The translations under genes were made by a program, and so were the position numbers. From Promethearchaeota archaeon (GTDB lineage: Archaea > Asgardarchaeota > Lokiarchaeia > Sigyniarchaeales > SOKP01): a stretch of DNA of 64,000 nucleotides. The stretch covers positions 1 to 64,000 of the forward strand of contig JAUVNS010000011.1 of the NCBI GenBank assembly GCA_030599585.1. Direction: 5' to 3'. Positions 37,559 to 44,525 of this stretch are shown piece after piece. The notes beneath the pieces are model-generated. The model was not told the origin of the DNA. It did not search any database and worked only from the letters and a program-made list of their open reading frames with translations. Numbering within the stretch: position 1 is the first letter of the stretch; each line of letters begins with the position of its first letter.

Positions 37559-38380
37559 TTATTCGTCACTTTTTTCATCTGTATCTACTTCTGGCTCCAG
37601 AGAAATTTCAGAAATTTCTTCCTCTTCAACTTCTTCGAACAGGTCTTTTTCTTCTTCGGTTGGTTCTCTTGTTTCTTCACTTATCTCGAGGTCTTTTTCC
37701 ACTTTTGTTTTACGTAACTCGGCTTCTATTTTTGCTTGAACTTTAGCTAATTCTTCGTGGTTTACTACGATTGTATCCCCCATTCTTATATCAGCGTGCA
37801 TGATTTTCACAATTATCCCTAAAGTTCCTGACTTCATAACACACTGAGCTACTCCTTTATCTACTCCTTCTTGAGCAGGTTGACCTGATTTTTTCATTGT
37901 ACCGGCCCTAAATACGGTCGTCCGGGCTCTCTGTGAAGTAACCTTACCCGAAACGATAATTTCTGTACCTCTAGCTCCAGAATCCATGATTTTACGTAAT
38001 ATATAATAACCTGCTCTTCTGTAATGTCTTCCTCGATCTAGCGAATACGCTAAACGTTCCGCCATAATCTGTGCGTTCAAATCCGGGTTTTCTACCTCCT
38101 CGACTTCGATTTGGGGCAATTAGCTTAAGGGAAAAATTTTCCCCTAATTTTCTAGCTCAAATCGTTCTTGAAGGATATCCGTGATCTCTTGAATACGCTT
38201 TCCGCCTTTTCCTATTACAAGGCCTGGGCGGGACGTACGAAGAGTGATTCTAACGCCAAGCGGGGTTTTCTGTATATCAACGCCAGCAAACCCAGCCCGA
38301 ACCAGTTCAGATCTCAGGTATTCGTTTATTTGCATTAATTTGATTCCTTGTTCAATAAAATGTTTTGCTAATGGGCTCAT
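37559..38380 (-). CDS. rps3: 30S ribosomal protein S3 (uS3), interrupted by a 30-nt in-frame insertion with two stops; joined product 263 aa
   Basis: 38144..38380 is the KH part (RPGLVIGKGG..ERFELE); 37559..38119 continues directly (PQIEVEEVENPDLNAQ..GARGTEIIVSGK); both parts are in the same frame. Confidence 0.93.
38119..38148 (-). other. Candidate 30-nt bulge-helix-bulge (archaeal-type) mRNA intron in rps3
   Basis: Exon helix CGAUUUG/CAAAUCG plus GC/GC, 3-nt bulge AUU, central helix UAGA/GCUA (3 bp + A.G), 3-nt bulge AAA, intron stem UUAGGGGAA/UUCCCUUAA; canonical cuts give CUA GAA AUG CCC CAA (LEMPQ). Confidence 0.7.
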
Positions 38381-38424
38381 ATTTACTACTTTTTTTTATA
38401 ATTTTAATTTTCTTTAATTTAATT

Positions 38425-38904
38425 TTAACTTGGAAATTCGTACACTACAATTTCCACATGACTTAAATGCCCAAACTTCGGAGAAGATCGACCGTGAGCT
38501 CGTTGAATATAGCGCTTTATTATTCTTCCTCGATGTGTTGCTGCGTGAATAATTCTACACTGTTCAGTGTCTAATCCTTTAAACTCAGCATTTGATTCAA
38601 CGGAAGTGAGAATTTCATAGATTCTAGCAGCGGTTTTTTGGGGGAATCTACCTGCATACCAGTTATACTGTTTCAAGTCTTTTCTGTGAGCTTGTTTCTT
38701 TTTATGTCTTCTAAATGGTACGGATTGCTTGAGTTGAATAACTTTCTCTAGATACCTTTTGGCTTGCTCTAGCTTCATACCTTTAATTACAGCACAAACT
38801 TCTCTTGCAGGTTTTGGTTTTATTCGTAAATCTCTACCCGAAGCTTTAGCCAACCTGTCTGCGTCATATTTTTGCTCTACGAAAGAATAACCCCAGTTAG
38901 GCAT
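38425..38904 (-). CDS. rpl22: 50S ribosomal protein L22 (uL22)
   Basis: DLRIKPKPAREVC..AGRFPQK..SNAEFKGLD..RAHGRSSPK. Confidence 0.96.
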   Translation of the reverse strand: MPNWGYSFVEQKYDADRLAKASGRDLRIKPKPAREVCAVIKGMKLEQAKRYLEKVIQLKQSVPFRRHKKKQAHRKDLKQYNWYAGRFPQKTAARIYEILTSVESNAEFKGLDTEQCRIIHAATHRGRIIKRYIQRAHGRSSPKFGHLSHVEIVVYEFPS

Positions 38905-43996: not shown

Positions 43997-44419
43997 ATGT
44001 CAGAAGAAAGAAATATAGATCCTTTTTCGTTATTGATTTTAGTTCTTAGTATCATCGCAATTGTAACGGAACTAATAGGTCCCTTCGCAGGTTTCTACTT
44101 AGGTAGTGGAAACTATAGATATTCGTGTTTGGATTGTGAATATAGTACAGGTGTTGACATAATACTTCAATACATAATTCTAATACTACTAGTGATTCAA
44201 GTAATCATTGTTTTGAACGAATTGCTACCTAGTAAGTTCATTCCTTTGGATGTTAACAAGTACGGCATGTTTTTGGCAATTTTAACATGGATCTTTGCTG
44301 TTATTGGACTTGCCTCTTTTGGAATAACCTATGGTAATTATGAATGGTGGCCCGAATTAGGCTTTTATGGAATCGTAGTCGGTGGACTTCTTAAAATAAA
44401 TAATTCTTTTTTTTTTTAA
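43997..44419 (+). CDS. Hypothetical membrane protein
   Basis: Three to four hydrophobic helices; WWPELGFYG. Confidence 0.7.
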   Translation: MSEERNIDPFSLLILVLSIIAIVTELIGPFAGFYLGSGNYRYSCLDCEYSTGVDIILQYIILILLVIQVIIVLNELLPSKFIPLDVNKYGMFLAILTWIFAVIGLASFGITYGNYEWWPELGFYGIVVGGLLKINNSFFF

Positions 44420-44525
44420 TCGGCAAATTAAAATCTTTTACACAATTCTCATAAACAAAGGTAATTATTTTATCAATTCGATAATTACTAAATTACGAAA
44501 AAAAATAGATAAGGAGTCGAAAACA

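Follow-up and report, generated by a model that had tools for sequence, protein, structure and literature searches.

A putative bulge-helix-bulge mini-intron in the ribosomal protein uS3 gene of a Promethearchaeota archaeon

In the literature that we searched, bulge-helix-bulge (BHB) introns of archaeal messenger RNAs (mRNAs) are described from only two genes, namely the coding sequence of cbf5, where the pre-mRNA for this pseudouridine synthase is interrupted in Desulfurococcales and Sulfolobales (Watanabe 2002; Yoshinari 2006; Yokobori 2009, PMC2738675), and the 5' untranslated region of the Haloferax volcanii HVO_1309 mRNA (PMC7714728). The same searches returned no report on protein-coding genes of Asgard archaea, and no paper describing an intron in the gene for ribosomal protein uS3. 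Here we analyse the rps3 (uS3) gene in a 64,000-nucleotide stretch of DNA from a Promethearchaeota archaeon (GCA_030599585.1, contig JAUVNS010000011.1, positions 1 to 64,000; hereafter the window), for which an original prediction, made from the sequence alone, had proposed a BHB intron in the rps3 mRNA. The 30 nucleotides at 38148-38119 are a real insert and very probably, with a probability of roughly 85%, a relaxed BHB intron in the uS3 pre-mRNA, which would be spliced by the endonuclease EndA and the ligase RtcB. In the structural and evolutionary points open to comparison, the original prediction is supported by the exact junction found in relatives, diverged inserts with covarying paired positions, a single rps3 copy with both exons conserved, the occurrence of EndA alpha, EndA beta and RtcB in the same genome, and further inserts of this kind in rps3 of relatives and in other genes of this genome.

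The window contains a minus-strand ribosomal protein operon that includes rps3, which extends from an ATG at 38380 to 37559. Translated across the insert, its frame reads ...QERFELEN*GKIFPLS*LPQIEVEE..., and the interruption of the gene by 10 extra codons containing an in-frame TAG and TAA, as originally described, is confirmed both by the sequence and by comparison with relatives: when the window was compared by BLAST with four of its close congeners, which are 87-93% identical to it over approximately 10 kb of the operon, a single clean coding gap appeared, at 38119-38148. Exon 1 (38380-38149) ends in ...CUAGAAA, the putative intron has the RNA sequence AUUAGGGG...GCUAAU, and exon 2 (38118-37559, stop codon included) starts with UGCCCCAAAUCG and encodes an acidic tail. 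With reference to Pfam, the insert is positioned between the KH_2 domain (PF07650, E = 1.3e-15; 38380-38147) and the S3_C domain (PF00189, E = 2.4e-21; 38116-37559). The genome under study, referred to below as G000 (other G numbers denote related genomes), comprises 52 contigs totalling 4.85 Mb, with completeness scored at 100% and contamination estimated at 8.9%. It carries rps3 in single copy, this gene being its sole S3_C match, and the uS3 that it encodes shares, over the two exons together, 98% protein identity with its intact orthologue in G004. The 30-nucleotide sequence is itself single-copy and no repeat, and a search of Rfam returned no family match in 37800-38500 at values up to E = 1.

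Uninterrupted relatives provide an independent view of what a spliced product should look like. At this site, CTAGAAATGCCCC or a synonymous version of it is found in more than 20 congeners, and CTAGAAATGCCCC itself in the closest intron-less ones, so that the ligation junction predicted from the fold alone is the actual sequence of the closest relatives that lack the insert. The predicted cut product, with the junction CTAGAAATGCCCCAA in RNA, would be in frame and would read L-E-M-P-Q, as anticipated, colinear with the uninterrupted S3 of the same relatives; a junction-spanning peptide is predicted to read, for example, FELEMPQIEVEEVENPDLNAQIMAER or ...FELEMPQIEVEE.... The insert is absent from more than 30 congeners and from approximately 150 genomes of the class. 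Among the 42 genomes of the genus only G000 and G014 are interrupted at this codon, and a further 7 of 161 class genomes are interrupted there, all of which belong to a second genus.

Between 38164 and 38107 the RNA forms an exon-exon helix CGAUUUG/CAAAUCG of 7 base pairs followed by GC/GC; the exon-1 strand of these outer helices occupies 38164-38155 (CGAUUUG, an unpaired A, GC) and the exon-2 strand 38117-38107 (GC, an unpaired CC, CAAAUCG), and both are backed by the fold and by covariation. Inside them lies a central helix in which UAGA of exon 1 (38154-38151) faces GCUA of the intron (38124-38121), with three standard pairs and one A.G juxtaposition. It is flanked by two bulges of 3 nucleotides, AAA on the 5' side (38150-38148) and AUU on the 3' side (38120-38118), each with its predicted cut after the second nucleotide (38149/38148 and 38119/38118, respectively), which is the junction of the intron-less relatives. 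The intron hairpin (38147-38125) is formed by an inner helix UUAGGGGAA(A)/(U)UUCCCUUAA of 9-10 base pairs and a loop of 3-5 nucleotides. Every helix and bulge named in the original prediction is present, and the bulges are laid out as in archaeal pre-tRNA, the 5' bulge adjoining the intron helix and the 3' bulge the exon helix. The locus shows the features by which a BHB is recognised: two 3-nucleotide bulges on opposite strands around a central helix of 4 base pairs (here in relaxed form), an outer exon-exon and an inner intron helix, a predicted cut product colinear with uninterrupted homologues, a structure conserved through compensatory change, and a host that encodes a splicing endonuclease and an RtcB-type ligase. 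The minimum-free-energy fold has -19.8 kcal/mol (z = -2.96), and none of 200 shuffled sequences folded as well. A BHB score this high is reached by 1.4e-5 of random choices of position and length in this genome, and the unique best BHB solution within 12 nucleotides on either side, for lengths of 15-50, is identical to the junction defined by homology.

An alignment of rps3 across relatives, proposed at the outset as a check, yielded the anticipated pattern, in which inserts of diverged sequence occupy this site and their BHB pairs covary. The alignment covers site B (codon 77, the site of the G000 insert) in 9 insert-bearing genomes from two genera, G000 and 8 other Promethearchaeota, all of which carry an insert of exactly 30 nucleotides at the same codon. 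The ends of these inserts are conserved (AU[UC]... and ...[AG]AGC[CU]NNN) and their middles are strongly diverged. Across the 9 alleles the BHB structure is 90.9% paired, as opposed to 50-52% when the partners are slid by one column; pairing reaches 97-100% in the exon-exon helices and 96% in the inner helix. Changes on both sides of a pair occur in 10 of 22 pairs, including 8 of the 9 pairs of the inner helix, the covariation score is 0.51 compared with 0.20 in shuffles, and not one of 500 shuffles attains the observed pairing or covariation. The covarying positions extend beyond the intron hairpin. In the central helix, the pair at columns 16-47, which is GC in 6 alleles, AU in 2 and GU in 1, connects intron position 27 (U or C) with the third base of a Leu codon (CUA or CUG). 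Covariation is also seen for an exon-exon pair at columns 6-61, whereas the A.G juxtaposition (columns 18-45) is invariant in all 9. The AAA of the 5' bulge is likewise invariant. Moreover, in the set of alleles compared for exon complementarity, the intron-bearing ones keep all 7 distal and both proximal exon-exon pairs, compared with averages of 5.4 of 7 and 0.8 of 2, respectively, in 57 intron-less alleles. An alternative register, with an AGCU/AGCU central helix and bulges of 6 and 8 nucleotides, fits 8 of the 9 site-B alleles; this arrangement is not a BHB and may represent a competing conformer.

Several observations weigh against removal of the insert by splicing. The central helix is weak, with three pairs and the A.G juxtaposition in G000 and only two standard pairs in 4 of the 9 alleles, and the minimum-free-energy fold, in which the outer and inner helices form, leaves this 3-base-pair helix open; for these reasons we describe the motif as a relaxed rather than a canonical BHB. 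Additionally, in this genome the insert falls between two domains without disturbing the frame, and an in-frame TTG follows it. This TTG, at 38119, had been pointed out in the original prediction and is indeed present, as a possible start of a separate C-terminal open reading frame (ORF). A potential explanation for these latter features is that the gene is split: an insertion in the DNA would have been tolerated at the KH/S3_C boundary, with an N-terminal fragment ending in ...RFELEN and a C-terminal fragment initiated at the TTG assembling together on the 30S subunit, and no splicing taking place. An insert that preserves the frame, contains stop codons and lies between two Pfam domains is what such a gene would be expected to carry, and the start codon following it is TTG in G000 and ATG in G014. 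However, a split gene gives no reason for the covariation of exon-intron and exon-exon pairs in BHB geometry, for the fixed length of 30 nucleotides, or for a tighter complementarity of exons that is restricted to alleles bearing the insert. Two separate polypeptides are formally possible for this genome if it is taken alone; as an account of the insert more generally we regard a split gene as improbable, particularly in light of the further inserts found in rps3 of relatives.

Two more insert sites exist in these genes, site C at codon 9 and site A at codon 57, in the GKGG loop of the KH domain. Inserts at site A measure 31 nucleotides in G014, G153, G105, G137 and G116 and 30 in G104, and those at site C measure 31 nucleotides in G106, G132 and G102 and 30 in G014, with the 31-nucleotide inserts shifting the rps3 frame. 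Site A fits a BHB, with 94.9% pairing and a central helix of 4 base pairs whose outer pair alternates between AU and UA in step with an Ile codon, and site C, read by eye, has a perfect CACU/AGUG central helix. When junctions were predicted blindly from BHB structure, the true one was found in 5 of 9 site-B, 3 of 4 site-C and 2 of 6 site-A alleles, the misses being alleles with a central helix of 2 base pairs or an asymmetric inner stem, so that the motif is to be regarded as relaxed in many alleles. All 6 genomes with an insert at site A carry the site-B insert too, and the two sites enclose a micro-exon (codons 57-77) of 60 nucleotides in these 6 genomes. In all of them it encodes GGKRIQEITD(I/V)LQ(E/D)(R/K)FGLE (19-20 residues), with mostly synonymous differences, and in 5 of the 6 it contains no in-frame ATG, GTG or TTG. 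Inserts that shift the frame, combined with a micro-exon that is conserved as protein yet has no start codon, point to removal at the RNA level, and judging from these sequences the inserts in relatives must be removed from RNA. A split gene could not express this 20-codon micro-exon, which lacks a start codon in 5 of 6 relatives and is preceded by a frameshifting codon-57 insert in 5 of 6.

Other irregularities were observed in rps3 of related genomes. G014 (G014:C122:13200-16800, L055), in which all three sites (codons 9, 57 and 77) bear inserts, has an additional insertion of approximately 2.6 kb after the first 11 codons; its original start (MSPLAKHFIEQ) leads, as a fusion, into an unrelated 102-amino-acid ORF, followed by ORFs of 424 and 142 amino acids, beyond which rps3 begins again at a GTG, with PLAKHFI duplicated, and the locus has no Rfam match. 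Matches to uS3 end early or start late in G003 (L026, residues 3-104, passing directly into rps17-like sequence), G006 (L015, residues 1-171) and G127 (L067, residues 95-208); assembly joins, rearrangements or additional interruptions may be the cause. On a contig with the label 'Candidatus Nanopelagicaceae bacterium' (DATKTW010000178.1, L130), which is probably mis-binned, there is a Promethearchaeota rps3 with 92% identity to that of G000.

Removal or skipping of the insert by a route other than EndA and RtcB, whether programmed bypassing by the ribosome, of the kind seen in T4 gene 60 and the mitochondrial 'byp' elements, or other RNA processing, appears less probable still. A short hairpin insert with a stop directly after a possible take-off codon (AAU UAG) is reminiscent of bypassing, yet no in-frame landing triplet is available, the only AAU near the 3' end leading out of frame into UGC CCC AAA in both G000 and G014, and the conserved parts of the inserts are those that define a BHB. 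That the gene is dead, or that the 30 nucleotides are absent from the real chromosome, is the most remote of the alternatives. In its favour stands the draft state of the assembly (52 contigs, contamination estimated at 8.9%), yet a genome scored 100% complete has no second, intact rps3 of the kind that the original prediction had named as a sign of a pseudogene, the exons are 98% protein-identical to an intact orthologue, and recurrence of the same insert site in nine independent assemblies rules out an assembly artefact. Among other classes of interruption, group I and group II introns need a ribozyme core of hundreds of nucleotides, and were rejected for an insert of 30 nucleotides with no Rfam match; an intein and recoded stop codons were also considered and rejected.

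Under the preferred reading, that of an intron excised from the uS3 pre-mRNA, exon 1 would pair at its end with the 3' end of the intron, in a short central helix of three Watson-Crick pairs and the conserved A.G, with the two 3-nucleotide bulges beside it, the exon-exon helix closing the structure on the outside and the intron hairpin on the inside. A heteromeric (alpha-beta)2 splicing endonuclease would cut each bulge after its second nucleotide, and RtcB would join the exons to give ...CUA GAA AUG CCC CAA... (L-E-M-P-Q) and an intact uS3 of 265 residues, the intron probably being released as a small circle. We infer EndA cleavage, the cut positions, ligation by RtcB and the spliced mRNA from comparative sequence evidence. 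The enzymes themselves are encoded in the genome: PF01974 matches it twice, identifying an EndA alpha (C24:165434-166036) with a catalytic Tyr/His/Lys context and an EndA beta (C35:67190-67795) without the His, a feature to be expected in a structural beta subunit, and RtcB is represented by one PF01139 match (C32:57327-58634, E = 3e-170). Asgard archaea have been reported to possess an (alpha-beta)2 EndA with a loop that confers a broad substrate range (PMC5829648), and the alpha and beta pair of G000 agrees with this type. In the whole genome ARAGORN detected no more than 21 tRNA genes and reported introns in 11 of these, some implausibly long. This number is far below the needs of a complete genome, and the majority of tRNA genes therefore probably have interruptions where ARAGORN cannot model them; heavily interrupted tRNA genes have been reported in Asgard archaea (bioRxiv 10.64898/2026.10.13.758758), which fits the low count.

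The suggestion that more such introns exist is supported by individual genes. Besides rps3 of relatives, inserts of the same geometry interrupt two other genes of G000: uL11 has a frameshifting insert of 28 nucleotides (C28:32730-32757, L142) with a perfect GCAU/AUGC central helix, and elf1 has one of 30 nucleotides (C32:69753-69782, L143) that splits the first CxxC of its zinc ribbon. Diverged inserts occupy the same codons in some species of the genus; in others the two genes lack precisely the length of the insert, and these uL11 and elf1 alleles read GGCATAAATATCAAAGAC and TGCCCAAATTGCGGTG, respectively. A structure-only census of the genome by two BHB scans, each followed by an ORF-restoration filter, barely exceeded its antisense control (1304 in sense versus 1134 in antisense, and 434 versus 357); AT-rich intergenic hairpins swamp the signal, and consequently we claim no intron count for the genome. 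Elsewhere in the window, at 44394-44431, G000 is without 28 and 65 nucleotides of AT-rich sequence found in G002, G010 and G014, and G004 and G048 also have extra sequence near this position.

The distribution of the site-B insert is patchy. Mapped onto a tree of rps3 exons, it requires at least 6 gains or losses, and G000 is nested in a well-supported group of eight genomes of which the other seven lack the insert; from these sequences, the pattern would reflect either many independent losses or re-entry at the same site. In the 16 nucleotides upstream of the insert, G000 is identical to the intron-bearing G014 and unlike the close intron-less G010 and G004, as might result if exon sequence had been co-converted in a lateral transfer; the tract, however, overlaps both the exon helix and a pre-existing clade polymorphism. 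The patchiness fits mobility, and one tentative and, in our view, rather doubtful scenario is that mini-introns form a mobile population that re-enters the same codon, through exchange of short DNA patches or reverse splicing, and whose presence in mRNAs for ribosomal proteins and a transcription factor makes ribosome production depend on tRNA-splicing capacity, which would place a layer of control akin to that of HAC1 in the archaea most closely related to eukaryotes. The coupling of ribosome synthesis to tRNA-splicing activity, as raised in the original prediction, is speculation.

The uS3 case is of high interest for its gene, its lineage and its number of sites. An essential ribosomal protein mRNA of an Asgard archaeon would need the enzymatic removal of an intron, a process which, in the literature searched, is otherwise documented in coding sequence only for cbf5 of Crenarchaeota. 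Confirmation in RNA would make mRNA splicing by protein enzymes a routine process in the lineage nearest to eukaryotes, would show that gene callers mis-annotate such genes as fragments, and would provide a tractable system for studying how introns enter, persist in and are lost from coding genes without a spliceosome.

Among known systems, the closest parallel is cbf5, which like uS3 has a short intron in an archaeal coding sequence, with boundaries of BHB type, in a lineage with a hetero-oligomeric endonuclease, and which has been gained or lost among related species. The two differ in phylum (Asgard/Promethearchaeota in the present case) and in host gene, here an essential ribosomal protein, and whereas splicing of cbf5 has been shown experimentally, that of uS3 is predicted. 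Moreover, the uS3 inserts occupy three or more sites across relatives, with as many as three in a single allele; other genes of G000 have similar inserts, and the relaxed central helix in uS3 includes an A.G that is conserved. With the BHB introns of archaeal tRNAs and rRNAs (bioRxiv 10.64898/2026.10.13.758758; PMC5829648), the uS3 insert shares the succession of helix, 3-nucleotide bulge, 4-base-pair helix, 3-nucleotide bulge and helix, as well as its small size and the enzymes presumed to act on it. However, the host RNA is a messenger whose reading frame must be restored, and the exon part of the motif is made of codons and covaries via synonymous sites. The HVO_1309 mRNA is a similar case of a messenger acting as substrate for the archaeal splicing endonuclease, yet its intron is located in an untranslated leader, unlike that of uS3, which interrupts coding sequence. 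Finally, HAC1 and XBP1 (PMC2965688) also involve an mRNA that is cut at stem-loops by a protein endonuclease and rejoined by a tRNA ligase (RtcB in metazoa) without a spliceosome, as would be the case for uS3; their endonuclease, however, is Ire1 rather than the tRNA-splicing enzyme, and their splicing serves as a regulated stress switch.
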